NCBI GenBank assembly: GCA_012295275.1
Contig: CM022678.1
Coordinates: forward strand, 558,001 to 622,000
DNA length: 64,000 nucleotides
From: Chrysomallon squamiferum
Taxonomy: Eukaryota > Animalia > Mollusca
Direction of reading: 5' to 3'
The position numbers and the translations under genes are program-made. Of this stretch, positions 291-62,916 are shown piece after piece (within the stretch, counting starts at the first letter, position 1; each line of letters begins with the position of its first letter). The notes below the pieces were generated by a model. The model made no database searches, was not told where the DNA came from, and worked only from the letters and a program-made list of their open reading frames with translations.

Positions 291-552
291 ATGGACAACA
301 AAAACAAGAGTTCAGAAGTTTCGTCTAACAGCACAGCTGTTTTGTCCACAGACAAAATCACAGCTGTTTCTTCTTCAGACAAAATCACAGCTGTTTCTCC
401 TTCAGACATCACAGCTGTTTGTTCTGCAGAGACTGAGACAGCTGTTTCTCTCTTAGACAATACAACAAGTGTTTGTCTCTCTGGCATCACACCTCAGTTT
501 TCCTTTGAAGTCACAACAAAAATATATCAACTACCTGTGTCAAGCAGTTGTG
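291..552 (+). CDS. Copy A first coding exon: Ser/Thr-rich N-terminus with about five 9-aa repeats (TAVxSxDKI)
   Basis: Acceptor tattttacag ends at 280, ATG at 291, open frame to donor G|gtaata at 552/553 (phase 1). Homologous to 45025-45249, with the donor at the same position. Confidence 0.7.
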
Positions 553-809: not shown

Positions 810-893
810 ATACTCAAATACAACTTGTAGAAGAGACAGTAAAGATATCTCACTGTGGAAATGTTGTAATAGGAGGCAATAGCACTTTAACTA
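810..893 (+). CDS. Copy A RHIM-like exon (DTQIQLVEETVKISHCGNVVIGGNSTLT)
   Basis: ttttcacag acceptor, A|gtaagt donor, 84 nt, phase 1-1, no stops. The paralogous exon 45828-45896 has the same boundaries and an in-frame length difference. Confidence 0.8.
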
Positions 894-2977: not shown

Positions 2978-3010
2978 CAGAGAGTGATGGACAAGTATCC
3001 AAGATCAAAG
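2978..3010 (+). CDS. Copy A 33-nt linker micro-exon (TESDGQVSKIK)
   Basis: gtttcag acceptor (NAGNAG), AAG|gtatt donor, phase 1-1. Same length and boundaries as 48724-48756. Confidence 0.75.
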
Positions 3011-3249: not shown

Positions 3250-4409
3250 AGTCTACCAGGCTAGCGTTAAATTCAACTGACTGGAGTGTCTATGTTGAAA
3301 CAAGAGCAGAGAAAAGAGGTGTTGCACTTTTGAAGCAGAATGGTGTTGTCATTGTGATAGGATGTCCAGGTTCAGGAAAGACAACTCTAGCTTTAAGCAT
3401 GATGAAACAGATAGCAAAAGAAGAAAAAAGAGAACCTTACTTGCTGACTCATCACTCTGAATTCAATGACATCTTTCTATCTAGAAATAAGAAAAGTGTT
3501 GTTCTCATTGATGACATATTTGGCAAGACGAATCTTGTTTCAGATTTTACAGACTCATGGGAACTCAAATTTCCAGAGATATGGAGTGTTGTTCAGGATG
3601 GTTCTGTGAAATGTATTATTACTTTAAGAAAACAAATATATTCAGAAACTGAAATTAGTTTGAAGGAATTTGGTCTGTTTAATGAGAAACATGTTATTGA
3701 TCTGCAGAGTGATGACTGTTGTCTGAATTATAATGAAAAAGAAGAAATTCTCAACAAATATCTCAAACAAAAGGATGTTCCAATGGATAAAAGTGGCAAA
3801 CATAAGGTCATTCGCAATTCATGTACAGAGCTAGGATTTCCTCAGATGTGTGAGTTTTATGTTAATTCAAGTGATGCACAAAAAAGAGGAGTTGAGTTTT
3901 TTAAGAAACCTGTAGAATATCTCAAAAAAGAGCTGGAAAAATTGAAAAATGACAAATCACCGATCAACTACCTGGTTCTACTGCTGATTTTGTTCAAAGA
4001 AGGCAGTCTCAGCATTGATTCATTGGACCCTTTTGAAAATGACACTGACTGTGACATAATGAAATTAGTAAGAGAACTGGAACAATTCTGTAAGAATCTA
4101 GAAAACACTAATCTTAGAAATATCAAGGAAACAGCTGATTTTATGTGTGGTACCTATTTGAAGTGTTGTGACAATAAATACACATTTATTCACCAGTCAG
4201 TGTTTGACTCTGTGTTTCTGATGTTTTCATCAGAGTTTCCAGAGAAAGCAGCAGAATTGATAGAAGTGTGTCCTGTCTCCAGGTTGTCAGAATATGTTGT
4301 GACACCTGAAGTTTCTAACAAAAGTCACATTACATTGACTGTGATACTTGACTGCTTTGATTTTCTTCTTCAGGGGTTTATTGACCTGGTATCACAAAGT
4401 TTCAGATAA
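3250..4409 (+). CDS. Copy A STAND NTPase (nSTAND3-like) exon, ending at a premature TAA
   Basis: cctacag acceptor; Walker A GCPGSGKT, Walker B VLIDDIFG, IITLRK, GFP (GxP) and FIHQS motifs. TAA at 4407-4409 corresponds to GAA in copy B. Confidence 0.85.
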
Positions 4410-6188
4410 ATTATTTCAAATCCATCACTCACAGATGAAGAGTTTTTTAAATATCTCATAGAGGAACAAAACTTTTATGGTAAGTTGCCTGAAATACTGC
4501 AACAGAGACTATATAAACATATTATCTTCTGTTGCAAGTTTGTGTATAGTGAATGGACTAAAGACATTGTCAAAATGTTTCACATCAAATCTGCGTAACA
4601 TGAAACTTACATTTGTTATGAAAGAACTTTTGGATATTTCTTGTTTGTTTGGTGATGAAGATGTGAGAATATTGCTAAAATCAGGTGTTATTCCAACATT
4701 TGATACATTCAATGCAGCTGCTTGTTCAAAAACAGACAGTGCTACCATACTCAAAGAATTGTTTCAGTATAAAAAGGTGGTAAAATTGAATTTGTATTCC
4801 CACTTGTTACATATTTCATTTTGTTCAGGTAACATGAACATTGCCTGTCTGTTGGTTGAGATGATAAATAATGAGAAACACAACAGTGAAATCAAGGAAG
4901 AAGCTGTGAAACTGTTTTTGGTTAGATTCCATAGAAAAGTAACATTTAAATCAAGCTGCATGTGTTTGGAAAAGGCTCTTCAAGTTGCTGATGTAATCAA
5001 TTTTTTAAAGAAATTGGTTACCATTGATAAATAAAATTAAAGACATTGCTATCATTGCTGCTGGTCAGAGGTCTTCAAACATAAAAGAAATAGTAAAACT
5101 GAAACCTGATTGTATAAATGATGAGAACAGAGATAAAGTACTTTTAGAAGCAGCTATGTGGGGATGTATTGATACAGTGAATTTTCTCATTGAGCAGAGA
5201 TGTAATGATACAGATGAGAACAACTGGAAGAAAGGTGAAGTACTGAAAGTAGCAGTGATGTTTAACAGTGTAGATGTTGTTCAGTGTCTTCTTGATAAAG
5301 GAGCTGATCCTAATGTGAATGTAGATGTTAACGTGAAATTGATTGTATAGTTTGAAAAGGAAATACGATTAAAACTGTTGTCTGATGACATAACTAGTTT
5401 GAAACTGTCACCTTCAGACTCACCTCTCCACATTTCAGTTCAGCGTGGTGACTTAGATATGATAAAATCACTGATAGAGAGTAATGCTATTGTTAATGCA
5501 GTAAACAGTGAGGGAAAAACTCCACGTCATGAAGCTGCAAAAGCAACACACAGAAAGGAAGTAGCTTTGTTGTTACTGGAAAATGGTGCTGATATTAACA
5601 TAACAGATAAACAAAAGAATTCAGCATTGCACATAGCATCTCAAATTGATATAGATGTGGTGAAAGAAGTAAGAAAAAAAGGTTGTTGAAATAAATGTAG
5701 TTAATACTAAAGGTAAAGTTCATCTTTTTACAACTGTTCAGGATGAACAGAACAAAGTATTTGTTTATTTAGTGGAACATGGAGCTGACCCTAATTTAAC
5801 AGACAATGATAACAATTCTGTTTTACACCTAGCAATATAAGAAAGAAATTTAGAAGTGGTGACAGCATTGATTGATAAAGGCACAGATGTAAATATTAGA
5901 AACTGTGGATGTGTAACTCCTCTTTTTGAGGCTATGAAGTCTCAACAGAGAAATGTAGTTTTGCATGGAGCTAATCCTAATTTAACAGCTAGTGATAACA
6001 ATTCTCTTTTACACATAATAGCTGCATATGGAAATTTAGACATTTTGACAGCACTGATTAAAAAAGATATTGATGTAAATATTAAAAACAGTCGAGGTGA
6101 AACTCTTCTTGATAAAGCAAAGAGTTGTAACAAAACGGGAATTGTTTTATATTTACTGGAGAATGGTGCTAAAGATATTAACAGATAG
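4410..6188 (+). pseudogene. Disrupted helical/ankyrin C-terminal part of copy A
   Basis: ORF fragments 4477-5034, 5024-5350, 5378-5689 and 5856-6188 are collinear with copy B but separated by frameshifts, stops and deletions. Fewer than 10 ankyrin repeats remain. Confidence 0.9.
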
Positions 6189-10379: not shown

Positions 10380-11610
10380 AGTTAGTTTTTAAAAGAAGAC
10401 TGCTTCAGAATGGTCTTTTAAGACCTAAACCAGCAGCTATTAGAGTTAAACATTAAAGAAGTAACAGTGAAAACTACATTTTTTGGCATAATCTGTTGAA
10501 GTAAAAACATAGTAATGGGACATAAATCATGATATGCTATTGTTTTTAGTCAGTGCCTAAAAATGAATTTATTAAAGTTATCACATCATTTACTAAGTCA
10601 AAGATCTTTATAATGCTGATGTTGTTTTCAACTAATGTCGTTGTTATAATGGGTTGGGTTATAGAAGCAAAAGTTTACTGATATAATGAATTACTACAAC
10701 TACACACCTCAGTGCAAGACCCCAAATACCTCAGTTTTTGCCCAGTCAGTAGTTTTAGAAAGTAATAAAAAGTATTCTGGGTTATAAACATGTTTATTTT
10801 GAATGTTTCATAACCTGGTATTAACAAACGAAATTAATTAAAAACAGCAGTAATAATAATAACTGCAGTTTCACACACCTGTAATTTACATTTCTGTGTC
10901 TTAGACAAATTGTAATCCCATATACATGTACATAAACTGGCTGACCCTGTACTAAAACACTACACAGAAGTGCATTGTCTTTCCAAATAGTTATTTAGAT
11001 TTTTCTCGTTGTCAAATTCATTTTATTTTCTTGCTATTTAGTAATTTTGAATTTCTTGATATCTAGATATTATGATTTTTGGCCGAATAATGTGTAGTTA
11101 CTGTTTGTTACAATGTTTTCATTTTTTCATTAAGAAATGTATCTAATATTTGTTGTATGTCCTCGTAGTCTGTTTCCAGAATCAGTTTAAAAATTGACTC
11201 AAATAGATTGTGTCTAAATATGTAAAACACATTCACACAGATCTTCATAATAACGTAAGAAATTCTTGTGAATTACAATTATGACAACAAACTATCTCAT
11301 TTTTCAACAACAACAAAAAAAATTCAAATCTGGTGTCAAAAAAATGTATTATTTATATTTAAAAGGTAAAAGATGTTGAAAAACAGTTAACAATACATGT
11401 TAATTTCATAAATGCTGTGATACAAAGTCTAGCAGGTCAGTCTCTAAGACTAAGAGCAGAGAAAAGAGGTGTTACACTTTCTAACAGACAACAATAGAAG
11501 TTCTGTTTCACAACTAACAGCTCATTATGGAAATTCAAACCCTGTGAGAGCTATGAAAAAGGTGTTGATGTAAAAATTATTAATTTCAGTGCTTAAACTC
11601 TTCGATAATA
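10380..11610 (+). pseudogene. Heavily deleted third paralog relic
   Basis: 10380-11060 resembles upstream region 41300-42000. 11417-11480 resembles the start of the NTPase exon (aagagcagagaaaagaggtgttacacttt). This is fused directly to an ankyrin fragment, LTDNNRSSVSQLTAHYGNSNPVRA...EKGVDV. Confidence 0.7.
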
Positions 11611-39860: not shown

Positions 39861-42293
39861 CGTAAATTAAATGTATGAAAAACTGGTTTCTTTCACCAGT
39901 ATTTAGCCCCGATCCAGCGCCCCGTTTACGCCTATATAATGAGGTGCCGTTATAGCCTAGTCAAAGAAAATGGTTCCGATTTGGTAGTGGTCCCGTTTTA
40001 ACCTGATCCGGAAAAATTAACTCAGGCTATCTGCGCTTGCGCAGAAAATGCGTATTGCTAAAAACTAGTATTTCGTTGTCGGTATTCCATTTTTTTAAAT
40101 CTGTTAATTATCAACAGTAGGTTATACTTGTTGCAAACTTCCGTCAGTCTGGCAGAGTTGACTTCTTGTGAAAGCGCTAAGTTGTTAGTGTAATTGATTA
40201 CAACCCTGATACGTGTATATCGTTCCATTGTGTACTTTTCGTATCAGCGACAATCAGCTGTTCAACCAGTTCAGGTTTCTAAATGCAGTAGCACATGCTA
40301 CTTACAGAAGCGGTTTATACAATATTTGAAACTGAAAATCATGTATAAACCGCCCCCTCCGATATTTTTCATTTTACGGGTAGGGTTTAGAGCGATGAAT
40401 AGAGATGGAAACGTCTTAATGTACTCAGTGTTTTGATATTATTGGGGAAAAAATCTCAGCCTGATGGTGAGCGCCACAAGAAACGTGTGACAAGTCTGCA
40501 TTTGACATGATCCCTCGTTGGCGGCTGCCTGGACAATTGGCAACAAGTAAAATTGCAGATACATTAACTTTTTCAAATAATATTTGGCTTTCTTCTGCAG
40601 AGTTTATGGGCTGTTTGAAAGAATTCATCCTTTTCTTTCTTGTAAAACATACAGCAGTTCTGTGTACAGACCTTTGGTTGGTTTTAACTGCTATTGTGAA
40701 AGTGAAGAAAATAATTAACTAATTATTAAAGAACACGCTCCATTCATTAAATTATTATTCTAGAGTTATTTCCCTTAAAGTTTTTGTTTCTGTTGTCCTT
40801 GTTTCTTCTCTCTGCGTTCTATATGTACGTGCATGGAACTTTGAATATAAACACATGTATCCAGTGTCCATTCAAGTCTGACATAAATAAGTTTTAAACC
40901 TGTCATTTTAGTTGAACCACAGCAGTAAACTTAATTAGTGAAATAGAAAGATCTTATAAGTTGTCACTGTTCATATGTATATATGACACACACATATACA
41001 GACATAAACAGACACATATATACATATATATACACGTACACACACACAGACACATACACATACACACACAAACATACATACATAGGGAATAACTGGTTAC
41101 TTATATAATATGTCTGCAAAGGTAAGAATACCAAATTACAATAAGGCTTTCAACATTCGACCTGAGCATGATAAAACTGTTAAGACAGTAACCATTTGTT
41201 TCTTTTTATGTGCAATCCTAAATAAAATAAAAATTGGATTGTCATATAAATCAAAACAAGGTAGTTTTTAGATAACTATTCTTTGTTATTATTATTCTTT
41301 TAAATGAAAACTGTTTTCAAAATGGTATTTTAAGACCTGAACCAGCAGTTAAATATTAAAGAAGTAACTGCGAACTCCATACATCTTTGTGTATGTGTGT
41401 CTGTAAATACTTAATTTGTCAAAGTAAACACATAATCATCATGAACAGATATATTTTTTGTCAGTAATTAAAAATAAATTCATCTAGTCACGATATCTAG
41501 CCTCTATGTACTGTCAAATCTGTTTATATTGCTGATGTTATTGTTAATTACTACATACTAAAAACCTCAATACTAGACCCAAAATACCGTAATGCTTACC
41601 TGCTGAGAAGTCCTAGCGATAAGTAATACTATATTGAATTATACAAAATATTTTTTTGGTTTGTTTGTTGTTGGTGTTGTTGGTTCTTTTTTTTTTCTTT
41701 TTTTTTTCTTTTTTTTAATGATTTATAATCTAGTATTAACAAATGAATTAATAATAACAACATTACTTATAGTAACAATAATAGTTTTAGTCACACACAT
41801 GTCATTTACCTTCTAAGTCTTAGACAAATTGTAATCCTACATATATGCACATACAATAGATGACCCATAATAAAACAGTACACAGAAGCACATTGCCTTT
41901 CTCTATAGTTATTTTGATTTTCTCCCTATCTAGTTCATTTTATTTTCTTGATATCTAGCAATTTCTATTTTCTTCATATCTATGTATTTGGATTTTCTCA
42001 GTACAGAAGAGCTTTTGGAGAAAAAAAATCAAAAATAAAATAACGATGTAGTAACTTTGACACATTTCCTTTTTATTAACTGAAATTCTGTGCAGGAAAA
42101 GGTCAAATAATTCATCATAGAAACTAAACACACCAACAATTTTGATATGGAAAGACTTCCAAGACTGTTTGAGAAAAGAAAATGTTTATTGTATATTTTA
42201 TGTACTTTATTTTATTTTCTAAATGAAAATTGATACATGTATTAATAATACATAAAATTGGAAAACATCTATTTTGTTTTGTTCTGTTGACAG

Positions 42294-42385
42294 GACAGAA
42301 GAGTTGTATGTCAGTGACAGAAAACTGGGTTAACATACAGCAGCTAAATTCTAAAGATGGGTTGAACTGATCTGAAACAATTCAA
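42294..42385 (+). other. Putative non-coding 5' exon of copy B
   Basis: Pyrimidine tract plus gttgacag acceptor and caa|gtaagt donor. A degenerate homolog lies near 62050-62135. Confidence 0.45.
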
Positions 42386-45152
42386 GTAAGTAAATCTTTT
42401 ATTTGTTTAAATTACATTTACACACAAGCAGAAGCAGAAACAGACAGATAAACACACATACATGTACACATTTCAAATTCAAGTGTAATTAAAGTGATTG
42501 TCAGTAAAATAGTAAAATTTAGTATTATAAGCGTACAATGTACAGTACAAGACTGATAAAACTTCAGTTGCCAAAACTAGTCACAAGCTGGGTCCAGGTT
42601 TTATTGAAAAAATAAATCAATCTTGTTATAGTAATGTTACTTATAATATTTTCTTTAAAATTTCTAACCTTTAGCAGTTTTCAGACTTTACATAAAATAT
42701 CTTATAAGATTTGGAATGAAGAATTTAGCAGATTATTGAAAACTGAAGTCTGCAAAGTATCAAAGTATGTTTATACAAGCAGAGAAATAGAGAAAAATTA
42801 TCGTCTAATATTTATTTGACAGTCTTGTTAATCTGTTTTGAAATATTACCCACGTTCATACTGATTTATTCCAAAACTTAAAACTTTAAAAAGTTCTTAT
42901 GGTACTAAAGAAGTAAATATATTACTATATAATTAAATTTAATACAAAGAAATATGATAATCTACCAAAAAATGATAACACTGGAAACTGACAATATAAT
43001 ATCCACCTGGAATTTTTTTTAGCATTCTGGTACAATAAGATTTTTTTTTTTTTATCACAATATTGTCACATAATTTTATTCCTATTTAACACTAATAACA
43101 TATCATTCCATTGTATGGACCATAGACTTCATAAAATAGTTTAAGGAAATTGTTTTAGAGAGAAAATGTCACATTCAGTCTCTAGATTACATCTGTAGTT
43201 AAAGGGTTCAATGACGAATACACATTCAACTGCCTCCAGCATCCAACTCATCTCTCCAGTTAAATGTTGGATTGTCAGATGGTCAGCTACTGTCATTTCC
43301 TGTGATGAGCTGATTCCACTTTCATTGTGTATATAAAATGTTCACTTATGTGCTCAAGTGGATACAAAACTGGACTCCTGACTGGCCTATAGGAATGATC
43401 TGTTGAATGTATTCTTGTCTGTGATCTTTGTGTTTTGGATGTCCACCACTGTGCCAAGTTCACACTGAATGATTTAGCTGTGGTAGACAGTGGGGTTAAA
43501 AATCTATATGTAATATGTGAGTGTACTGCAGTTTCAGAAAATAACATGGAAACCTGATACACAGACCTGTCATAGTGAAATCAGGTGTAACTGTCATTCA
43601 GAAACATGGAACATCATTCTGTTGTCAACAATCACAAAGTTGTAATTACTTGTCACATCGTGTCACTCATTATCTCAGTGCTATCCTTTTCTCCACTTGT
43701 ATATTTGTGACATTTCCATTTAGTGAATTATATAATATTCACAACACCCTTATTTTGTTGTGACCATTTAAAGCAGAATGTCTCCAACATTTTATGTTAG
43801 TATATTATTATATTACAATAATATTTAATTAGCCATCGTGTATAATCATGTATGTAATTAATATTTTTACAGTTCTTAACTGTTTACCTAATTAATATCA
43901 GAAAATTAGGATAAATACACAACATCTAAATAGCAGGGTATATGCAGACAACCATGGGCTGTTTAGAAACAGTGTTATATAATTAGGGGAAGTTCCGTTA
44001 TTTTATAAAATAAGAAACACTGGGATTTACAAACTCAAAATTGGCATTTAGTTCCAAAGTAAATTCAGAAAGGCTATCTACAGAGCTGTTTACTGAATGC
44101 CTGCATAATGTCTATAAATATTCGACGAGCGTTTTAAACGAGATATTTTGATCGGTGCGCTTTCTTGAGACACATTGTCTGGGGGCCGTCTGCTCAAGAC
44201 AAAGGATCACTCAGACAATGCTAATTACGGTTTAAATGTTTTCTGTATGTAACATACATGCTGATTGATTGAAGATAGCTAAATATATTACTGTTGGATA
44301 TTTTATTGTGATATTATGCAGTACGCACTTGCGCTTAAAAACTAAGTAACAAACTAAGATAACTTATTTTAATAACTAAAAAATTAGTTAAAAAGTTAAA
44401 GTAACTAACTGGGCTACTTCCTTTTATATTGCATTGTTCGAATAGTACGATTAAATTATATGTAACCATTGATGCTTTATTTATGTGAAATATATATAAT
44501 AATTACCTATATTCAATTCTTGTTTGTGTTATTGTTCTCTAGTGGATACAGAATAGTCATTTAGTAGTTTAAGCTGTCTCAGATAATCAACACCTTGTCA
44601 CGTGACGCTATTATAGTCTGCTACCCTTTAGACGGGACGAGCCAAATTTTAGGTATCAGTACCACCCAGTCTAGTCATAGTGAAAATATCTTAGTATAAC
44701 TGTTGTGATAATTATTGACGTAATTTAGTACTGTAGTTTAAAAGAATCCTGTAAATGTTTTGTGATAATTACTGGAGTTAATTATTACAAAATATTTTAA
44801 ATGAACTGACTGTAATATGATGTAAGAGTAATTAATTGCAACAATATTAAATTTTGACATTAGCACTGATGTGATAATTATGTTTTCATGACTATTTTTA
44901 TATAACAGTCTAACACAAAATAATTATTTAGTAAATAAGGACGTGTATTAAAAAATTCTTATTTCATTATTTTAAAATACTTTCAGGAATATATTTAGTG
45001 AACAAAAGTTGAGAATGCAGTATGAGCTGTTTCGTCCACAGACAACATCACAACTGTTCGTTCCTTGGACACCATCACAGCTGTGTCATCCACATACAAT
45101 ATTACAACTGTTTCTTCTGTAGCGACTGACAAATGGTTCTTTCTTAGACAAA

Positions 45153-45249
45153 ATGTCAAGTGTTTGTCCCTCTGACATCACATCTCAGTCTTCATGTGAC
45201 ATTACAAATACAGGATGTCATGTACAACAACCTGAGTCAAGCAGTCACT
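45153..45249 (+). CDS. Copy B first coding segment (MSSVCPSDITSQSSCDITNTGCHVQQPESSSH) within an exon starting at 44987
   Basis: tttcag acceptor ends at 44986; aaaATG at 45153 is in the frame homologous to copy A; donor T|gtaaca at 45249/45250, phase 1. The donor is weak and the start is uncertain. Confidence 0.55.
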
Positions 45250-45827
45250 GTAACACACACAATATTTCTATATACTGTTTAATGTTTTGATATTATAAAC
45301 ATTCAAAATTATTTTTACTTTTGTAATCATAGAATATTTCAATATATTGTTTACTTTATTGATGGTAAATTCTAAACTGACAAATGTACTATTTACATTT
45401 AGAACAATACAGTGTTTCAGTATATTGTTTAGTTCTGTCTTAGCCATTATAAAAAAGACACCTTTTAAATTTATATTCATAATAATTAGCAGTTTAAAGT
45501 CTTTATGGCCTTTTTGTTTCACAGATTAAAACAGTAATGCAAACTACACACTAGACACTGTCTGATTACTTTATCATGAGCATTATAATAATTCTTGTTT
45601 TTCTATGTATTTTAGTACTGTAAAATAATATGTATTTCATAGCACCTACACATAATCAGTTAAAAACATTTTTGACATATACTGTTATATTTCATAATAC
45701 TTTGTAACAAACAACAGATTCTATTAACAGTGAATGTTGTCCTTACAGATATAAACATTTTTTTTTGTTTTTTGTTTTTTGCTTGTGAGTTGCAAATTTA
45801 AAAACAATTATTTACTCTGTTTCACAG

Positions 45828-45896
45828 ATACTCGAATAAGGCAACATGAGCAACAGACAGCAAATGTTCAAGCGGGAGACAATAACACTATAATTA
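45828..45896 (+). CDS. Copy B RHIM-like exon (YTRIRQHEQQTANVQAGDNNTII)
   Basis: gtttcacag acceptor, A|gtaaga donor, 69 nt, phase 1-1; paralog of 810-893. Confidence 0.75.
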
Positions 45897-47021
45897 GTAA
45901 GATCAAAACTAAAATTTCTTACGTATTTGTTTTCTCTACATTTTTAATTGATAACAGAATACACATGTGACATACTCTGGCTAAAGGAGACACGTCCAAA
46001 TTCCGAGATATGAATATATTTTGCATGTATGTGCAATATCCTTTCCAATACATCATGTATATATCTTGGAAATTGACTAAGTTGTAGCAGTTTCTAATAC
46101 TGATTCACCAAGTCATCACAACATAGCTACATAAATAAAACACTGACTAAACTTCTTGAATACAATGCCCACTTGTCATATGTGACCTATCTCAACCAGT
46201 AATCACTACATTATCTAAAGATTCTGTGATCTGCTATTCTCTGCTGTTAGGATTATTTTCACCTTTGTTTCCAGTCACTGCTTCTAAAATCGTCATTTTC
46301 ATTATCTGTTTGTGTGAATATGCATGTTTTAGCATTTTTAATGGTAATTTTTTAATTTTGTTAAATTAATTTTTTTATTATTATTATTATTTTTTTTTTT
46401 ATCTTATCTCTATTGTTCTAAAAACAAGGGCTGGAAATCAAGGCATTTTGTCTTTTTTGTTATGTTCCCTTTACTTCGGTTTTTAACTGAATATATCGAA
46501 AATTACTAATTATTCCTTTCAAATTATCAAAGCAACATTAATAATTCAAAACACTGTCCTGCTTTTAGCTATGAATTTAAATAAATTACCTTTTTTTTTT
46601 AAATTATATAACTATATTAATTATTTCCAGTCATAATCCTTAGTTTGTATGTATTATTTCTAATTTATAAAATAAAATACATATTTTTAAAAAAAGGTAC
46701 GGAAAAGAAAATGATTATGCAAATATTTTTCGGATAACCCACTAATGGCTTAAATAGAATTTACACACTCACAGATACACAGACAGATAATAACATATAA
46801 ACAAATACACACACAGACATTCACACATACAAACACGTTCAGGCATAGCATAAGTTCTGACTGAGAGTTTCTTCTTAAACTGTTAATATAACAACATGAA
46901 TTAAACATGACTTTATGCCTGTCATTATTATCACCTGTAAATATTAAATATACTGCAAGGTATAGGTAATAACAACAACAACAGCAGTAACAATAACAAT
47001 AACAACAGCAACAATAAACAA

Positions 47022-47923
47022 CGGGGCGTCTAACGCAGGCGCAAGCGACCTGTAATTAACAACGTTGTCACGTAACCAAATTAGAATCCTCTAACGGCCG
47101 TAACACTCTTCCCCAAAAATAACACTAACATACAGACCTCCCTGTATCGGGTAGTCAGATGCCCAATTTTGCTCGGCTCTAAGGGTATTCAGGGAACAAG
47201 GCTATATATGTATTTATATTTACTGTTAATCCATTAGAAACACAAAAACACAAGTTTAGATTTAAAGAATATTTGTATTATATTATCTAACAATAGTTAT
47301 TTACCGAGTAAGCTTACAAAGCTTCCACTGCCAATTACAAACAGTTTTACGCCACAAAATCACTCTCACCACATGCGTGAACATGTGGGGGATATTAAAG
47401 ATGTTTAAACTAGCACATCCCAATATGTATTAGAATATGCAAGTACATCAAAATAACATACTGCTTAGCAGGACGTTCACATGACAATAGTTAATAATAA
47501 TACTAATGTAGTATCAGTGCTTACAATTACTGATGGTCGGTGTTGACCTCAGATTCCCAGCTATTCTCACCCACTGTTTCAGTTTACTTTGATCAGTCTG
47601 ATCTCAGAATACCAGCTGTTCTCCAAAATAATGGTTATACTATTTCAATACATAAACATATACATTTTATTATTTAGGAAAGACCACATAGGTCGTCTTT
47701 TAACATTCCTTCCCCATAGTGGTTCCGAGATTGGTTTGAATTTCAGCAGACAAGCAGACGCTAGTGGGTTCCCCAAAACAACATTTCACAAAGCTTATAT
47801 ATTTTTTAAGGAAATATAACATCCATTACGTATTAAAGAGGAGACTGGCGTCTTCATGTCATTTAGCTTATGTAATTCTTAAGCGTTACATATTAGAAAG
47901 GAGACTGGTTGTCTCTGTCACAC
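47022..47923. mobile_element. Unclassified intronic insertion with a long target-site duplication
   Basis: Flanked by caacagcaacaataaacaa (47003-47021) and caacagtaacaataaacaa (47924-47942); absent from the copy A intron (about 2770-2790). Confidence 0.55.
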
Positions 47924-48018
47924 CAACAGTAACAATAAACAAGAACATTAGTGATAAGAAACAACAGCAGTATTTATGAAAATAGTAGGAGTAATTATAT
48001 AAAGTAAATAACAAAGAT

Positions 48019-48580
48019 GGTGTCAGGGCATTTAACCACTGGATATATCCCCCGTGACAGTCCCCCCCCCGTCTACCTGTTTTATCTGTCAAATATCATG
48101 GCTTATAGTCTGAGTCATTAATAAGGTTTTTTATGGGGCCAAACATTGCTTAAATTTGGGAATAATGAAAAAGGATAAATTATTCTTGGTTTTGTTTGTT
48201 TAACAACAAATTTAACTGGTTAAACCTCATGTTGTTCCAAAGTTCATGTCAACAAACTACAATCATTATCCAAATATCTGGCTGTTTCTGGATGTCCTGA
48301 AAAAAGAACAATCCCTCAATACTGTAACACTGCACCAGATACTGTTGTGTCTACACAGACATCACCCAGCGGCTTCAGACTGTCGTCACAGACTACGGCA
48401 ACAGAGACTGCCAGGACGTGCGACGTGTTGCTGCACACAATCTCCACATGTAAAATGTTTCAAATAAACAATTTGTGTCATATACAATTATCTTTTTATC
48501 TCAAGATAATCTGTGCAAGAGATCAGTTACGCTTGGCATGGTAGGCAGGGGGAATTGTCACGGGGGAAATGACCTATAAT
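48019..48580 (+). mobile_element. Mutator-like (MULE) deletion derivative
   Basis: TSD taacaaagat at 48009-48018 and 48581-48590; subterminal inverted repeat cccccgtgaca / tgtcacggggg; internal YPNIWLFLDVLKKEQ resembles the MULE transposase C-terminal HPNIWxFxxxLKxEQ motif. Confidence 0.75.
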
Positions 48581-48723
48581 TAACAAAGATCTAATAATAA
48601 TAAATTACATGATTACTGTTTCACGAATAAAGTACAGATTAATTGTACAGATCACTTTAATTATTCTCTTTTACTCAACATCAATAATACAAAGTTAATT
48701 GTTTTATTTTTATATTATTTCAG

Positions 48724-48756
48724 TAAATACTGATGGAAAAGCATCCAATACCAAAG
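48724..48756 (+). CDS. Copy B 33-nt linker micro-exon (INTDGKASNTK)
   Basis: atttcag acceptor, AAG|gtatt donor, phase 1-1; paralog of 2978-3010. Confidence 0.75.
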
Positions 48757-49031
48757 GTATTTTTTATTATTATTTCTTAAGTATTTTTATAGTTTTCTAA
48801 GCGATTCATAAATAGAAAGAAAATCATCTCACTACACTTATACCATCTAAAAGTGTGACATCTTATTATCATCATTAAATTCTGATTAACTAAAATTATG
48901 ACAACAAACTGTTTTATATCAAAAACTTCACATCTGATTATGAAATTTATATGATTTTTATTTACATAATCATCTATGCTTTAAACAGTTAATAATATAT
49001 ATATTTTTTGTTTCTTTATGTTGTGATACAG

Positions 49032-52000
49032 AGTGTACCAGGTCAATGTTAAACTCAGTTGACTGGAGTGTCTATGTTGAAACAAGAGCAGAGAAAAGAG
49101 GTGTTGCACTTTTGAAGAAGAACGGTGTTGTGATTGTAGTAGGATGTCCAGGTTCAGGAAAGACAACTCTAGCTTTGAGCATGATGAGACAGATAGAAAA
49201 AGAAGAAAAAAGAGAATCTTACTTGCTGACTCATCACTCTGAATTCAGTGACATCTCTCTATCTAGAAATAACAAATATGTTGTTCTCATTGATGATATA
49301 TTTGGTAAGACGAATCTTGTTTCACATTTTAGAGACTCATGGGAACAGAAATTTCCAGAGATATGGAGTCTTGTTCATGCTGGTTCTTTGAAATGTATTA
49401 TTTCTTTAAGAAAACAAATATTTTCAGAAAGTGAAATTAGTTTGAAGGAATTTGACCTGTTTAATGAGAAACATGTTCTTGATCTGCAGAATGATGACTG
49501 TTGTCTGCTTCATGATGAAAAGGATAAAATTCTAAACAAATATCTCAAACAAAAGGATGTTCCAATGGATGAAACTGATAAAACGACTGTCATTTACAGT
49601 TCATGTACAGAGTTAGGATTTCCTCAGGTGTGTGTGTATTATGTTAATTCAAGTGATGCACAAAAACGAGGAGTTGAGTTTTTCAAGAAACCTGTAGAAT
49701 ATCTCACACAGCAGCTGGAAAATTTGAAAAAAGACAAATCTTTACAGATCAATTACCTGGTTCTACTGCTGATCTTGTTCAAAGAAGGCAGTTTCAGCAT
49801 TGATTTACTGGATCCATCTCAAAATGACACCGACAGTGACATAATGAAATTAGTAAGACTGCTAGAGCGAGTCTGTCAGAGTGTAAGAAAGCCTGATCTT
49901 ACAGATATAAAGAAAACAGCTGATCTAATGTGTGGTACCTATTTGAAGCTGTGTCACAATAAATATATTTTTATTCACCAGTCAGTGTTTGACTGCTTGT
50001 TTCTGATATTTACATCAGAGTTTCCAGAGAAAGCAGCAGAATTGCTAGAAGTGTGTCCTGTCTCCATGTTGTTAGAATATGTTGTGACGCCTGGAGTATC
50101 TAACAAAAGTCACATTACATTGACTGTGAGACCTGGCTGCTTTGACTTTCTTGCTCGCAGATTTACTGACTTGCTGGCATCAGACAATGGCAGAGAAACT
50201 ATTTCACATCCATCACTGAAAGATGAAGAGTTTTTAAAATACCTGATAAAGGAAAAATACTTTTGTGGTAGATTGTCTGAAATGCTGCATCAGGAAATAT
50301 ATGAAATAGACTATGTCAAACATTTATGTGAAAATAATGAAACTAAATACAATTATATATCTTTTGTAAATCTTTACAGTGCTAATGAAATATTTTGCAC
50401 AATTTCATGTCTTCTTGACAAAGATTCCAAATTTGACTCTAGTTACACATTGTATTTGAAAGCTGATGAAAATTGTATAGAGTTATCTTCTGTTGCAAGT
50501 TTGTGTATAGTGAATGGACTAAGAACATTGTCGAAATGTTTCATATCAAATCTGTGTAACATGAAACTAACATTTGTGATGAAAGAACTTTTGGATATTT
50601 CTTGTTTGTTTGGTGATGAAGATGTTGTGAGAATGTTGCTAAAATCAGGTGTTATTTCAACATTTGATACATTCTGTGCAGCTGCTTGTTCAAAAACAGA
50701 CAGTGCTACCATACTCAAAGAACTGTTACAGTATAAGCAGGAGATGAAACTGAATATGTGTCCTCACTTGTTACATATTTCTATTTGTTCAGGTAATATA
50801 AAGATTGCCTGTCTGTTGGCTGATATGATAAATAATGAGAAACACAACAGTGAAGTCAAGGAAGAAGCTGTAAAACTGTTACTGGTTAGATTCCATAAAC
50901 AAGTAAAAGTTGTGTTACATGATAGGCATGTTGTGGAATGTGAGAGGTATTTTGGAAAGGCAAAGACTATTAAAGCTGATGATGTAAACAGTCTTTTTAA
51001 GAAACTGGTTACCATTGATATAATAAATAAAATTAAAGACATTGCTATCGTTGCTGCTTGTCAGAATAGTTCAAGTCTTATGAAAGAAATAGTAAAACTC
51101 AAACCTGATTGTATAAATGATGAGAACAGAGATAAAGTACTTTTAGCAGCAGCAATGTGGGGATCTACTGACACAGTGTATTTTCTCATTGAGCAGAGAT
51201 GTAATGATAAAGATGAGAACAACTGGAAGAAAAGTGAAGTACTGAAAGTGGCAGTGATGTTTAACAGTGTAGATGTTGTTCAGTGTCTTCTCGATAAAGG
51301 AGCTGATCCAAATGTGAATGTAGCTGTTAATATGAAATTGATTCGATTCTTTGTAAAAGAAATCATATCACAAGTGTTTTCTGGTGGCATATTAATAATA
51401 CAATCATTGGTTCGTCTAAAAACTATTGACAAAACTGAATTGCTTCAAGATGAACCTAGTTTGAAACTGGTGCCTTCAGACTCACCTCTTCACATTTCAG
51501 TTCTGCGTGGTGACCTAGATATGATAAAATCACTGATAAAGAGAAATGCTGATGTTAATGCAGTAAACAGTGAGGGAGAAACTCCACTTCATAAAGCTGT
51601 AAAAGCAGTGACACAGAGAAAGGAGGTAGCTTTGTTGTTACTTGAAAATGGTGCTGATATTAACATAACAGATAAAAGAAACAATTCAACATTGCACATA
51701 GCCTCTCAAATTGACATAGATGTAGTGAAAGAAGTAATAAAAAAATGTGATGAAATAAATGTAATTAACACTCAAGGAGAAACTCCTCTACTTTTGTCCT
51801 TATACAATAACAGACCTGAAACAGGCAAATATTTACTAAAAAATGGAGCTGATCCTAATATAACAGACAATGATAAGAATTCTGCGATACACATAGCAGC
51901 TCAACGTGGAAATCTCGAAATTGTGACAGCACTGATTGAAAAAGGGGTTGATGTAGACGTTAAAAACAGTAAAGATGAAACACCACTTACTATAGCTATG

Positions 52001-55000
52001 AAATCTAAAACGCAGAAAGTAGTTTTGTATTTACTGGAACATGGAGCTGATCCTAATTTAACTAACTGTTTTAACAATTCTACTTTACACTTAGCAGCTG
52101 AACATGGAAATATGGAAATTGTGACATCACAGATTGAAAAAGGTGTTGATGTAGACGTTAAAAGCAGTAACGGTGAAACTCCTCTTTTTACAGCTGTTAA
52201 GTATAAACAGAACAAAGTAGCGTTTTATCTGCTGGAACGTGGAGCTCATCCTAATGTAATAGACAATGATTACAATTCGCTTTTACACATAGCAGTCAAA
52301 AATGCAAATATAGAAATTGTGAAAGCACTGATTGAAAAAGGTGCTGATGTAAATATTAAAAACTGTCGAGGTGAAATTCCTCTTTTTACCGCTTTTAAGT
52401 ATAAACATAACAAAGTAGTTGCGTATTTACGCGAAGACGAACCTTTGAACCAAGTAGTTTCTTATTTATTAGACCACGGAGCTGATCCTAATTTAACAGA
52501 CAATGATAACAACTCTGTTTTACACCTAGCAGCTGAGCATGGAAATATAAAAATTGTGACAGCACTGATTGAAAAAGGTTTAGATGTAAATATTCAAAAC
52601 TGTAGGGGTGAAACTCCTCTTTTTGCAGCTGTTAGCTATCAACAGAGACAAGTAGTTTTGTATTTAATGGAACATGAAGCTGATCCTACTTTAAGAAACA
52701 ATGATAACAATTCTGTTTTACACCTAGCAGCAAAATATCGAAATATTGAAATTGTGACAGCACTGATTCAAAAAGGTGTTGCTGTAAATATTAGAAATAA
52801 TAATGGTGAGACCCCTCTTTCTACAGCAATTATGCATCACCACAAAAAAGTATTTTATTATTTACTAGAACATGGAGCTGATCTTAATTTAAAAGATACT
52901 AATAACAATTCTATTTTACACGTAGCAGCTAAATATGGAAATATAGAACTAGTGACAGCACTGATTGAAAAAGGGTTTTTTGTAAATATTAAAAATAGCC
53001 GAGGTGAAACTCCCCTTTTTAAAATTGTTGAGAATCAAGGATTTTTCTCATTACAAGGACACGAACGTTTGAACAATCTATTTTTTTATCTCCTCAGAAA
53101 TGGAGCCGATCCCAATTTAAGAGACAATGATAACAATTCTGTTTTACACCTAGCAGCTAAACAAGGATTTATTGAAATTGTGACAGCACTGATTGAAAAA
53201 GGTTTTGGGGTAAATATTAAAAACAGGCGAGGTCAAACTCCTCTTTTTACAGCTTTTACTTATAATGAACTTGAACCATCTCTGAACAATGAAAAATGTA
53301 AAGTAGTTTTGTACTTATTGGAACATGGAGCTGATCCTAATTTATCAGACAATGATAACAATTCTGTTTTACACCTAGCAGCTAAACATGGAAACATAGA
53401 AATTGTGAAAGCACTGATTGAAAAAGGTGCAGACGTAAATATTAGAAACAACACAGGTGTAACACCTGTTTTTATAGCTGTTGGGGCTAAACAGACAAAA
53501 ATAGTTTTGTATTTACTGGAACACGGAGCTCATCCTATTTTAACAGACCATCATAACAATTCTGTTTTACACGTAGCAGCTCTAAATGGAAATGTAGAAC
53601 TTGTGACCGCACTGATTGAAAAAGGTGCTGATGTAAATCTTAGAAACTGCCAAGGCTACACTCCTCTTTTTTCAGCTCTTTGTAGCTATGTATTTGATCC
53701 TTCTCTGAAGAATGAAATATGTAAAGTTTTGTATTTACTGGAACATGAAGCTCATCCTAATTTAACAGACAATGATACCAATTCTGTTTTACACATAGCG
53801 TATTCACTTACAAATATAGAAACTGTAACAGCACTGATTGAAAAAGCTGTTGATGTAAATATTAGAAACAGCCAAGGCGACAGTCGTCTTTTTACAGCTC
53901 TTTCTAACTGTCAACTTGACCCATCTCTGAAGAATAAAATATGTAAAGTAGTTTTGTACTTATTGGAACATGGAGCTGATCCAAATTCAATAGACAATGA
54001 TAACAATTCTGTTTTACACATAGCGTCTTCACTTACAAATATAGAAACTGTAACAGCACTGATTGAAAAAGGTGTCGATGTAAATATTAGAAACAGCCGA
54101 GGTCAAACTCCTCTTTTTACAGCTCTTTCTAACTATGAATGTCATTCATCTCTGAAGAATGAAATATGTAAAGTAGTTTTGTACTTATTGGAACATGGAG
54201 CTGATCCAAATTTAATAGACAATGATAACAATTCTGTTTTACACATAGCGTCTTCACTTACAAATATAGAAACTGTAACAGCACTGATTGAAAAAGGTGT
54301 CGATGTAAATATTAGAAACAGCCGAGGTCAAACTCCTCTTTTTACAGCTCTTTCTAACTATGAACGTCATTCATCTCTGAAGAATGAAATATGTAAAGTA
54401 GTTTTGTACTTATTGGAACATGGAGCTGATCCAAATTTAAAACTCACTGACAACAATTCTGTTTTACACCTAGCAGCTGCAGTTGCAGATATAGATATTG
54501 TGAGAGCACTGATTGAAAAAGGTGCTGATGTAAATATTAGAAACGGCGAAGGTGCAACTGCTTTATCTATTGCTTTTAGTTACCGTAGAGATGATCCATC
54601 TATGAAGAATGAAATATGTAAAGTAGTTTCGTATTTACTGGAACATGGAGCTGATCCTAATTTAAAACTCGCTGACAACAATTTTGTTTTACACCTAGCA
54701 GCTGCACTTGGAAATATAGAAATTGTGAGAGCACTGATTGAAAAAGGTGCTGATGTAAATATTAGAAACGGCGAAGGTGCAACTGCTTTATTTACAGCTT
54801 TTGCTTACGGTGAATATGAACCATCTATGAAGAATGAAATATGTAAAGTAGTTTCGTATTTACTGGAACATGGAGCTGATCCTAATTTAACATACAATGA
54901 CGACAACTCTGTTTTACACCTAGCAGCTGCACGTGCAAATATAGAAATTGTGAGAGCACTGATTGAAAAAGGTGCTGATGTAAATATTAGAAACAGCCAA

Positions 55001-56257
55001 GGTCAAACTCCTCTTTTTACAGCTTTTGGTTACAGACAAAATGATCCATCTCTGAAGAATGAAATAGGTAAAGTAGTTTCGTATTTACTGGAACACGGAG
55101 CTGATGCTAATTTAACAGACACTGACAACTATTCTGTTTTACACCTAGCAGCTGAACTTGGAAATGAAGAAATTGTGAGAGCACTGATTGAAAAAGGTTT
55201 TCAAATAAATATTAAAAACAGCCAAGATGAGACTCCTCTTTTGATAGCACTTAAGTATCAACAGAACAAAGTAGTTTTGTATTTAATGGAACACGGAGGT
55301 GATCCTAATTTAACAGACACTGACAACTATTCTGTTTTACAGCTGGCAGCTGCATTTGGAAATATAGAACTTGTGACAACACTGATTGAAAAAGGTGCTG
55401 ATATAAATAGTAAAGACAGCCAAGGGCTCACTCCTCTTTTTATTTCTCTTTTTTGCAGTATACACGACTCATCTCTGAATGTTGAAAAATATAAAGTATT
55501 TTTCTATTTGCTGGAACATGGAGCTAATCCTAATATAACAGACAATGATAACGATTCTGTTTTACACTTAACAGCTCATCAAGGATATATAGAAATTGTG
55601 ACAGCACTGATTGAAAAAGGTGCTGATGTAAATATTAGAAACAGAAGAGGTGAAACTCCTCTTTTTGCAGCTCTTGCTTACAATGAATGTGGTCCACCTC
55701 TGAAGGATGAAAACTGTAATGTAGCTTTGTATTTATTGGAACATGGAGCTGATCCTACATTAACGGACAATGATAACAATTCTGTTTTACACCTAGCAGC
55801 TAAACAAGGATTTATTGAAATTGTCACAGCACTGATTCAAATAGGTGTTGATGTAAACATTAAAAACAGTCGAGGTGAAACGCCTCTTCTTATTGCTGTT
55901 AAACATGCACATTGGATACAGGTTTTGTATTTTCTACGGCGAGAACCTTCGAAGAAAGTAAATTTGTATAAACAACGACATCAAGCTTTGAAGAAAGTAG
56001 CTTTGTATTTACTGGAACATGGAGCTGATCCTTATTTAACAGACAATGAAAATGATTTTGTTTTACAGCAAGCAATGAAACATAGAAATGTTGATGTTAT
56101 ATTAGCAGTGACTGAAAAAGGTAGAGATGTAAATACTAAACATAGTCGAGATGAAACTCCTCTTGATAAAGCAAAGAGTTGTAACAGAAGGGGAATTATT
56201 TTAAGTTTACTGAGAATGGTGCTAACGATATTAACAGATAGATACATTTTGTTATAA
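49032..56257 (+). CDS. Copy B giant terminal exon: nSTAND3-like STAND NTPase, helical region and about 44 ankyrin repeats (NLR-like receptor)
   Basis: 2403-aa ORF from 49046; gatacag acceptor at 49031 is in frame with the upstream exons; Walker A GCPGSGKT, Walker B VLIDDIFG, GFP and FIHQS motifs; alternating SVLHLAA / TPLFTA ankyrin repeats. Confidence 0.93.
51480..56240 (+). repeat. Coding ankyrin tandem array of about 22 two-repeat units (mostly 198 or 225 nt)
   Basis: About 44 repeats counted by eye. Units 53991-54215 and 54216-54440 are identical except at one base. Confidence 0.92.
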
Positions 56258-62229: not shown

Positions 62230-62800
62230 TCCCAGTTTGTGAGATATTAACAGTTACGTTGTGAGATATTAAGAGTCAGGCTGTCAGATACTAACAGTCA
62301 GGTTGTGAGATACTAACAGGTTGTTTGATATTAACACAGGTTGTGAGATCCTAACAATCAGATTGTGAGATACTAACACAGGTTGAGAAAAACTAACAGT
62401 CAGGTTCTGTGATACTAACACAGGCTGTGTGATACTAAAACAGGCTGTGTGATACTAACACAGGTTGTGTGATACTAAAACAGGTTGTGTGATACTAAAA
62501 CAGGCTGTGTGATACTAAAACAGGTTGTGTGATACTAAAACAGGCTGTGTGATACTAAAACAGGTTGAGAGATATTAACAGTCAGGTTGTGTGATACTAA
62601 CAGACAGGTTGTATGATACTAACAGACAGGTTGTGTGATACTAACAGACAGGTTGAGAGATACTAACACAGGTTGAGAGATACTAACACAGGTTGTGAGA
62701 TACTAACAGACAGGTTGTGTGATACTAACACAGGTTGTGAGATACTAACACTGGTTGAGAGTTACAAACACAGGTTGTGAAATGCTAACAGGTTGTGAGA
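62230..62800. repeat. Minisatellite, 20-24 bp unit (caggttgtgtgatactaaca)
   Basis: About 25 head-to-tail degenerate copies without unique spacers. Confidence 0.93.
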
Positions 62801-62802
62801 TA

Positions 62803-62916
62803 CATGTATGTATGTGTGGATGGATGAATGGATGTATGTATATAAGTACGTGTATGTATGTATGCATGTTTGTATGTTTCTGTGTGTATGGATATATGTA
62901 TATATGTGTGTTTAGG

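Follow-up and report, generated by a model that had tools for sequence, protein, structure and literature searches.

Receptors that combine a short motif, a STAND NTPase and a repeat domain are an established feature of fungi and have been predicted in bacteria (PMC12881547, PMC7889193, bioRxiv 2020.01.06.895854, PMC12261475), and the PP and BASS3 motifs of such proteins are related to RHIM, short for RIP homotypic interaction motif (PMC12881547, PMC7889193, bioRxiv 2020.01.06.895854). We analyzed a 64,000-nt stretch of the gastropod Chrysomallon squamiferum (hereafter the window; assembly GCA_012295275.1, contig CM022678.1, positions 558,001 to 622,000, forward strand), which holds two paralogous nSTAND3-ankyrin genes, namely copy B, with an intact reading frame at 45153..56257, and a broken copy A upstream of it. 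By a narrow preference, we read copy B as a likely gastropod sensor resembling the NOD-like receptors (NLRs), belonging to a family some of whose members likely signal by an N-terminal RHIM-like amyloid motif that is damaged in B itself. Fungal NWD2 (R0-NACHT-WD40) and PNT1 (PP-NB-ARC-TPR) and the bacterial BASS3-NLRs are like this family in joining a short amyloid-type motif to a STAND NTPase and a repeat sensor. Here, however, the NTPase is nSTAND3, the sensor consists of ankyrins, the host is an animal and the motif of B is truncated; moreover, no adjacent gene for a HeLo- or Bell-type effector was found in the window. The Branchiostoma protein BF82280 likewise carries a RHIM in the effector slot of an animal STAND receptor (Kajava et al. 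2014, PMC4262963), but it is a cephalochordate protein with NACHT in place of nSTAND3. The main text of that study names no mollusc family in the sections covered. nSTAND3 is the NTPase of Avs5 (bioRxiv 2025.07.08.663546). Bacterial Avs5 (Sir2-nSTAND3-TPR) has the same NTPase family and tripartite plan and ranked fourth in our Foldseek search, but differs in its enzymatic effector, its TPR-like sensor and an identity of 10%.

Proteins of the same family as A and B occur in Gigantopelta aegis, Haliotis, scallops and freshwater mussels (RefSeq/GenBank), where they are labelled 'uncharacterized' or 'ankyrin-like' and their N-termini vary between Death, DED, CARD, HEPN, caspase, SAM and short motifs. 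Mollusc expansions that combine STAND, HEPN, death folds and ankyrins were described by Kaur et al. (PMC8195603), with the term 'RHIM' absent from the main text as far as covered. A literature search that had most subscription journals and all supplements outside its scope returned no account of RHIM-like motifs in mollusc nSTAND3 receptors, and in the literature searched, amyloid-coupled NLR signalling in animals was represented by a computational note on the amphioxus RHIM-NACHT protein alone (PMC4262963). Aplysia is reported to be without RIPK orthologues and to have four NACHT-based NLRs (PMC9334734), and a review places the origin of RIPK1/3 in Mollusca (PMC13506858). Counts of mollusc NLRs by NACHT domain would overlook the nSTAND3-ankyrin receptors.

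Gene structure and domains of copy B

Copy B is predicted to consist of four coding exons on the forward strand. Exon 1 (45153..45249, 97 nt, 32 codons) is rich in Ser, Thr and Cys and has a replacement ATG and a weak donor; exon 2 (45828..45896, 69 nt) encodes the second half of the RHIM-like motif with the core VQAG; exon 3 (48724..48756, 33 nt) is an 11-codon linker; and exon 4 (49032..56257, 7226 nt) encodes the nSTAND3 NTPase, helical and winged-helix-like domains, a helical linker and the ankyrin repeats. When joined, the exons comprise 7425 nt, equivalent to 2474 residues and a stop, with GT-AG ends and phase-1 joins throughout, exactly as had been proposed from the letters alone (97+69+33+7226 nt, phase 1, about 2474 residues). 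Exon 4 is one of four frames of at least 150 residues in the window, and upon shuffling (200 shuffles) it contained 189 stops on average and 158 at minimum, compared to an unbroken real frame. The exon chain and reading frame of copy B are real. The segment ahead of the nSTAND3 match had been put at about 70 residues, too few for a death fold; it is indeed short, but counts 80 residues, the match beginning at residue 81 of the joined protein. We also found support for the warning that a start at 49046 misses the small 5′ exons: gene models beginning in the large exon would lose the motif. An upstream exon with a globular domain was considered for B as well, but is not supported, as there is no long frame upstream and the N-termini of relatives from the same clade are short or of low complexity.

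The Pfam nSTAND3 profile (PF20720) matched residues 14-172 of the exon-4 frame (49073..49549, forward strand) with 89.1 bits (cut-off 27.2, E = 3.1e-25), covering profile positions 1-154 of 155, and Ank_2 matched with E = 4.5e-266, so that both domain assignments of the original prediction stood. Translation and alignment showed both Walker motifs, A and B, of the NTPase to be intact. NACHT (19.8 bits, cut-off 26.7) and NB-ARC (14.8 bits, cut-off 23.5) remained below threshold, and of the 32 Pfam matches the 25 best include no LRR family, the repeats being ankyrins. Copy B is not an NLR in the strict sense of NACHT or NB-ARC combined with LRR. Residues 1-410 of exon 4 were modelled with AlphaFold2 on 17 sequences; the model reached a pLDDT of 90 and a pTM of 0.87 (a single-sequence fold was poor, with a pLDDT of 36, and was rejected as structure model). 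The best Foldseek matches of the AlphaFold2 model in the PDB included NLRP2, SAMD9, an archaeal AAA+ ATPase, Avs5, NRC1 and chains of the MalT system, with E-values around 1e-5 for the STAND and ORC/Cdc6 chains. A sequence search of the PDB with the NTPase yielded P-loop or chance matches alone. The predicted layout of B, in which helical and winged-helix domains and then a repeat sensor come after a P-loop domain, is STAND-like. By our estimate, about 45 repeats make up the ankyrin array, most of them paired in units of 66 or 75 residues. Among its units (n = 17), positions 24, 25 and 47 of 55 were the most variable, and the proportion of non-synonymous differences at these positions was more than twice the mean proportion of synonymous ones, in pairs that are not independent. 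In ankyrin repeats, such positions lie on the ligand-binding face. Of the tripartite receptor originally proposed, the switch (nSTAND3) and the variable sensor (ankyrin) were retained, whereas the amyloid signal was not retained for copy B.

Motif and 5′ end in copies A and B

Deep mutagenesis of RIPK1/3 defined four essential aliphatic residues at positions –8, –6, 0 and +2 around the core (bioRxiv 10.64898/2026.02.19.706818). The exon 2 of copy A (810..893, forward strand) encodes a full-length RHIM-like motif in which this tetrad is complete (4/4) and followed by Gly at +3, with Val replacing the core Gln. Relative to A, exon 2 of B is shortened by 18 nt at 45859/45860; the deletion is in frame and removes the first strand. 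Copy B had been said to hold a complete RHIM, but with these 18 nt missing, one of four tetrad residues present, Ala at the third position and none of four RHIM patterns matched, this claim could not be upheld, and the composite 'ancestral' motif derived from both paralogues is present in neither copy. The core (V/I)-Q-(V/I/L/C)-G is absent from both copies, B reading VQAG and A reading VVIG. In register with a RIPK3 chain, A is identical at 7 of 17 positions and B at 6 of 17, those of B lying entirely in the second half. There, six of the seven residues from core to tail are identical to RIPK3, among them Gln, Asp and two Asn at positions that differ in A, and the likeness of VQxGDNN to RIPK3 noted originally was borne out. 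Compared to the mammalian RIPK1/RIPK3 RHIM, tetrad spacing and Gly are shared by A, core-to-tail identity by B, and the family profile described below matches in register; nevertheless, neither copy has the strict core, there is no kinase and Pfam does not detect a RHIM. No Pfam family was found on exon 1 or exon 2 of B. Sequence searches of the PDB with exon 2 of A or of B singly retrieved chance matches and no RHIM, and the ESM Atlas gave no usable match for exon 2 of A. Support for an amyloid-type motif is moderate for the family and copy A, and the motif is unsupported for B. Since half of its motif is missing, B likely cannot seed amyloid itself. The pair of A and B represents a natural comparison of a full and a half motif.

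Copy A shows the same exon order and phases as B: exon 1 (coding, 291..552) with 9-residue Ser/Thr repeats and an ancestral-type start, exon 2, exon 3 (2978-3010) and exon 4 (3250..6188), all on the forward strand. It is a broken paralogue with a short ankyrin array: its chain runs for 512 codons before a stop at 4407, and frame changes come later on. Comparison of the copies revealed a deletion of 312 nt in B with its junction at 45025..45032 (forward strand), an 8-nt microhomology (A 23-30 = A 335-342 = B 45025-45032). Positions 45003-45032 of B match A 1-30 at 28 of 30 bases, and of the 50 bases that follow, 40 agree with A 335-384. The 312 nt gone from B held an intron, its acceptor and the ATG of A (291), and an additional 2-nt gap in B shifts the old frame. 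Upstream of exon 1, a likely exon 0 of 33 nt (44987..45019, forward strand), which would be joined by splicing, includes an ATG (45015 in B, 13 in A) that is in frame with exon 1 in A and out of frame in B, where the frames are closed. The ATG at 45153, the first in-frame start of B, is aligned to a non-ATG codon of A; it has an A at –3 and is preceded by three out-of-frame ATGs (45015, 45022 and 45133). The donor of exon 1 was the weakest of ten donors scored and ranked at the 71st percentile of GT sites in the window, compared to the 92nd for that of A. From the alignment, B appears as the derived copy at its 5′ end, and overall it is likely a derived, motif-damaged copy. The original prediction had overlooked that the ancestral start region is gone from B and that it is the broken copy A in which the best RHIM-like motif resides.

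RNA evidence came from four runs of one study, containing 5–7% of words, whose contigs were aligned at 85% likeness. The runs yielded 663, 642, 467 and 602 contigs, with 77, 71, 42 and 67 of these being at least 99% alike, and these counts show that the family is expanded and expressed. Letters resembling exon 3 immediately precede exon 4 in 9, 4 and 5 contigs (runs X1, X3 and X4), and in one paralogue contig alignment to exon 2 ends precisely at 45896 and continues in exon 4, its GT..AG joint matching the donor at 45897. In two runs, contigs proceed from exon 1 (45216) to exon 2 (45862), the intervening letters being not known. At many sites all RNA contigs differ from B (e.g., at 49378 and 49380 in all four runs), and the RNA, coming from paralogues, therefore supports the exon 2 donor and the exon 3–4 join and not the transcript of B; contigs of this kind also reveal no start site. 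Paralogue contigs have A-like letters ahead of 45025 and their alignment resumes at 45862, two bases past the 18-nt gap of B, suggesting that the expressed paralogues are A-like. RNA contig depth was also seen at 44300-44793, upstream of exon 0, with a palindromic E-box-like site near 44600; this region could be a repeat shared with other loci, or it could mark the promoter together with an initial non-coding exon.

The effector slot across mollusc relatives

Searching 1.84 billion representatives returned 858 hits; together with the relatives already identified, 151 proteins were gathered, 79 of them with an N-terminus of at least 30 residues. A redundancy filter left 74 N-termini, and dropping 21 globular ones (recognized by regular expression or Pfam) left 53. 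The four fixed patterns occurred in 0, 4, 2 and 8 of the 79 relatives. Tetrad-plus-Gly alone exceeded the shuffles (4/79 against a mean of 0.8, p = 0.014 uncorrected, with two of the hits being related scallop proteins), and the strict RHIM core was found in two of the 79 (p = 0.10). A first seeded iteration locked onto a HEPN motif. Leave-one-out iteration from the motif of A recruited 11 of the 53 relatives, all with the motif located before the NTPase, compared to 0–5 with shuffled targets (15 runs) and 0–12 with shuffled seeds. Named members recruited were from Gigantopelta, Haliotis, three scallops, two freshwater mussels and Solemya. The family consensus gained the core Gln although the seed has Val. 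When the profile of these 11 relatives and A was searched against 177,635 PDB sequences, four matches appeared at E-values up to 10, namely the RIPK3 chains 7dac (1.4) and 12kl (1.9), a ribosomal protein (0.58) and a hexapeptide transferase (1.7). Both RIPK3 matches fall on the RHIM, in register. Scored against the family profile, B was at chance level (p = 0.36).

All-against-all comparison of 60 N-termini gave nine clusters at z over 5, two of them RHIM-like, one of which ties exon 2 of A to a protein of the scallop Argopecten (z 8.3). Copy B was in no cluster. Two five-member clusters, whose named members are from abalone, represent different motifs that are likewise short and conserved and abound in V, I, N, T, S or G. 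One (P0019, P0024, P0027, P0030 and P0155, Haliotis) has 40 conserved residues just before the NTPase, with many V, I, N, T and S and repeated Ile-Asn steps, and does not resemble a RHIM; a PDB search with this class gave no RHIM and no informative match, and the motif is a candidate for a second amyloid or beta-solenoid signal. The other (P0025, P0028, P0031, P0036 and P0156, with P0031 and P0156 from Haliotis rubra) is a third short motif class, rich in Gly, Thr, Val and Asn, in the same slot. In further members this slot is occupied by Death, CARD or caspase domains (above cut-off), by SAM, or by DED and HEPN, where DED and one HEPN match were below cut-off. Three proteins (P0003, P0007 and P0069) apparently have two nSTAND3 modules per chain.

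Among named relatives, the closest to B are Gigantopelta aegis proteins, which are 37% identical to it across residues 1-700 in exon 4. In a quick, unrooted IQ-TREE tree of 89 rows (the careful search was unfinished; P0152, P0161, P0167 and proteins with an NTPase starting within 45 residues were omitted, except P0001 and P0006), A and B grouped together inside a clade whose other nine rows are all G. aegis. The RHIM-like label required six changes on this tree, of which supported branches force at least three. One RHIM-like protein was placed in a supported clade with a DED-bearing protein. By these comparisons, the effector slot is modular.

Competing readings and proposed signalling

Several observations weigh against the reading of B as a damaged member of an amyloid-signalling receptor family. 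On the side of the fold, the Foldseek TM-scores were only 0.27–0.45. On the side of the motif, one of the four fixed patterns was enriched, without correction; one of 30 shuffled seeds recruited as many relatives as the seed from A, or more; the 21 globular N-termini were removed by a choice made after earlier searches had locked onto HEPN; and the profile, being seeded on A, is partly circular. An unseeded motif search found HEPN and not the RHIM-like motif. The E-values of the RIPK3 matches are not significant, the top match being the ribosomal protein. Pfam scans of the 12 profile rows named no RHIM, and neither did those of the exon-2 peptides of A and B and 39 relatives, performed with a library whose holding of a RHIM family was not separately confirmed. 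In a held-out set of 16 new proteins, four with too short an N-terminus and two in which it was not located, none of the ten remaining carried the motif. Finally, no partner or effector gene was detected within the 64-kb window, where there is no frame of at least 150 residues between the copies, no clear exon set and no match to a family protein.

The missing Pfam match, the weak PDB E-values, the held-out set and the non-significant score of single sequences (the core of A in 4 of 74 relatives against 1.5 expected, p = 0.061) all favour the view that the RHIM likeness is due to chance, the N-termini being low-complexity linkers rich in V, I, N, G, S and T and the receptors signalling in trans by other means. 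The codons of the motif add to this view, as they give no sign of conservation between the copies: over the 12 codons shared by A and B, 9.3 of 27.3 non-synonymous sites differ, compared to 0.11 in the NTPase. We nevertheless regard chance as unlikely, because the motif recurs in register across distant snail and bivalve clades, the consensus gains the core Gln despite Val in the seed, and a second motif class of similar composition fails to retrieve RIPK3.

Slightly less probable still is the view of the original prediction that the motif of B works, in its shortened form, as a cryptic RHIM, its divergence from A reflecting a change in partner specificity. It draws on the RIPK3 residues that B retains from core to tail (6/7), on the deletion being in frame, on protein change being greater in the motif than in the NTPase (approximate Fisher p = 0.002) and on insect cryptic RHIMs, which require only VxxG (PMC13506858). 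However, three of the four essential aliphatic positions are lost in B, its score on the family profile is no better than chance, and it groups with no relative. Least probable of the three, in our judgement, is that B has recently become a pseudogene or that its expression begins at a different 5′ end (e.g., near 49046), so that the four-exon protein is not made: the deleted ancestral start region, the three out-of-frame ATGs before 45153, the weak exon 1 donor, the many sites at which every RNA contig differs from B and the already broken neighbour A would fit, but the 7.2 kb frame is unbroken including its repeat array, GT-AG ends and phase are kept in all four exons, the ATG at 45153 has an A at –3 and the RNA runs may derive from individuals or species without the B allele.

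If the family does signal by its RHIM-like motif, ligand binding would fall to the variable ankyrin array, and the STAND module, whose fold is predicted, would by analogy to Avs5 and other STANDs exchange nucleotide and oligomerize. The resulting ring would bring the motifs of motif-bearing paralogues together as a beta-stack, and this stack would template a partner of similar motif in the manner of fungal NWD2 and PNT1. Copy B would then signal only via co-assembly with motif-bearing paralogues, or would damp them. A search for relatives of 110–350 residues found none. A metagenome locus (L001, 33% over 54 residues) was rejected as a single weak and likely spurious match. It is also conceivable, though distinctly more tentative than the reading of B and its family given above, that the mollusc nSTAND3-ankyrin receptors as a whole constitute an animal lineage of amyloid signalling. 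In their slot, death folds, HEPN and caspase would be interchangeable with short amyloid motifs of several classes, one being RHIM-like (copy A, Gigantopelta, scallops and freshwater mussels) and at least two conserved but non-RHIM (abalone), with B as a motif-damaged regulator. If this were true, the abalone classes would be the first animal signalling amyloids other than RHIM. Short conserved motifs in an expanded mollusc family make amyloid-NLR signalling in animals testable with peptides of 20–40 residues.

Elsewhere in the window, non-coding blocks are duplicated between 10387-11079 and 41298-41996, and a segment between the copies (11482-11579) resembles part of the ankyrin array (55536-55637) over a short stretch of DNA, with no match at the protein level. 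These blocks and the ankyrin match are perhaps the relic of a third copy. A further 93-nt segment (42294-42386) has a clean acceptor and donor and, in our reading, stops in all three frames; it is likely a non-coding or dead exon. Positions 12900-38600 form a mosaic of locally duplicated, microsatellite-rich blocks of 65–95% identity with no long frame, and a tandem array of 25 copies of a 20-nt unit lies at 62287-62803.

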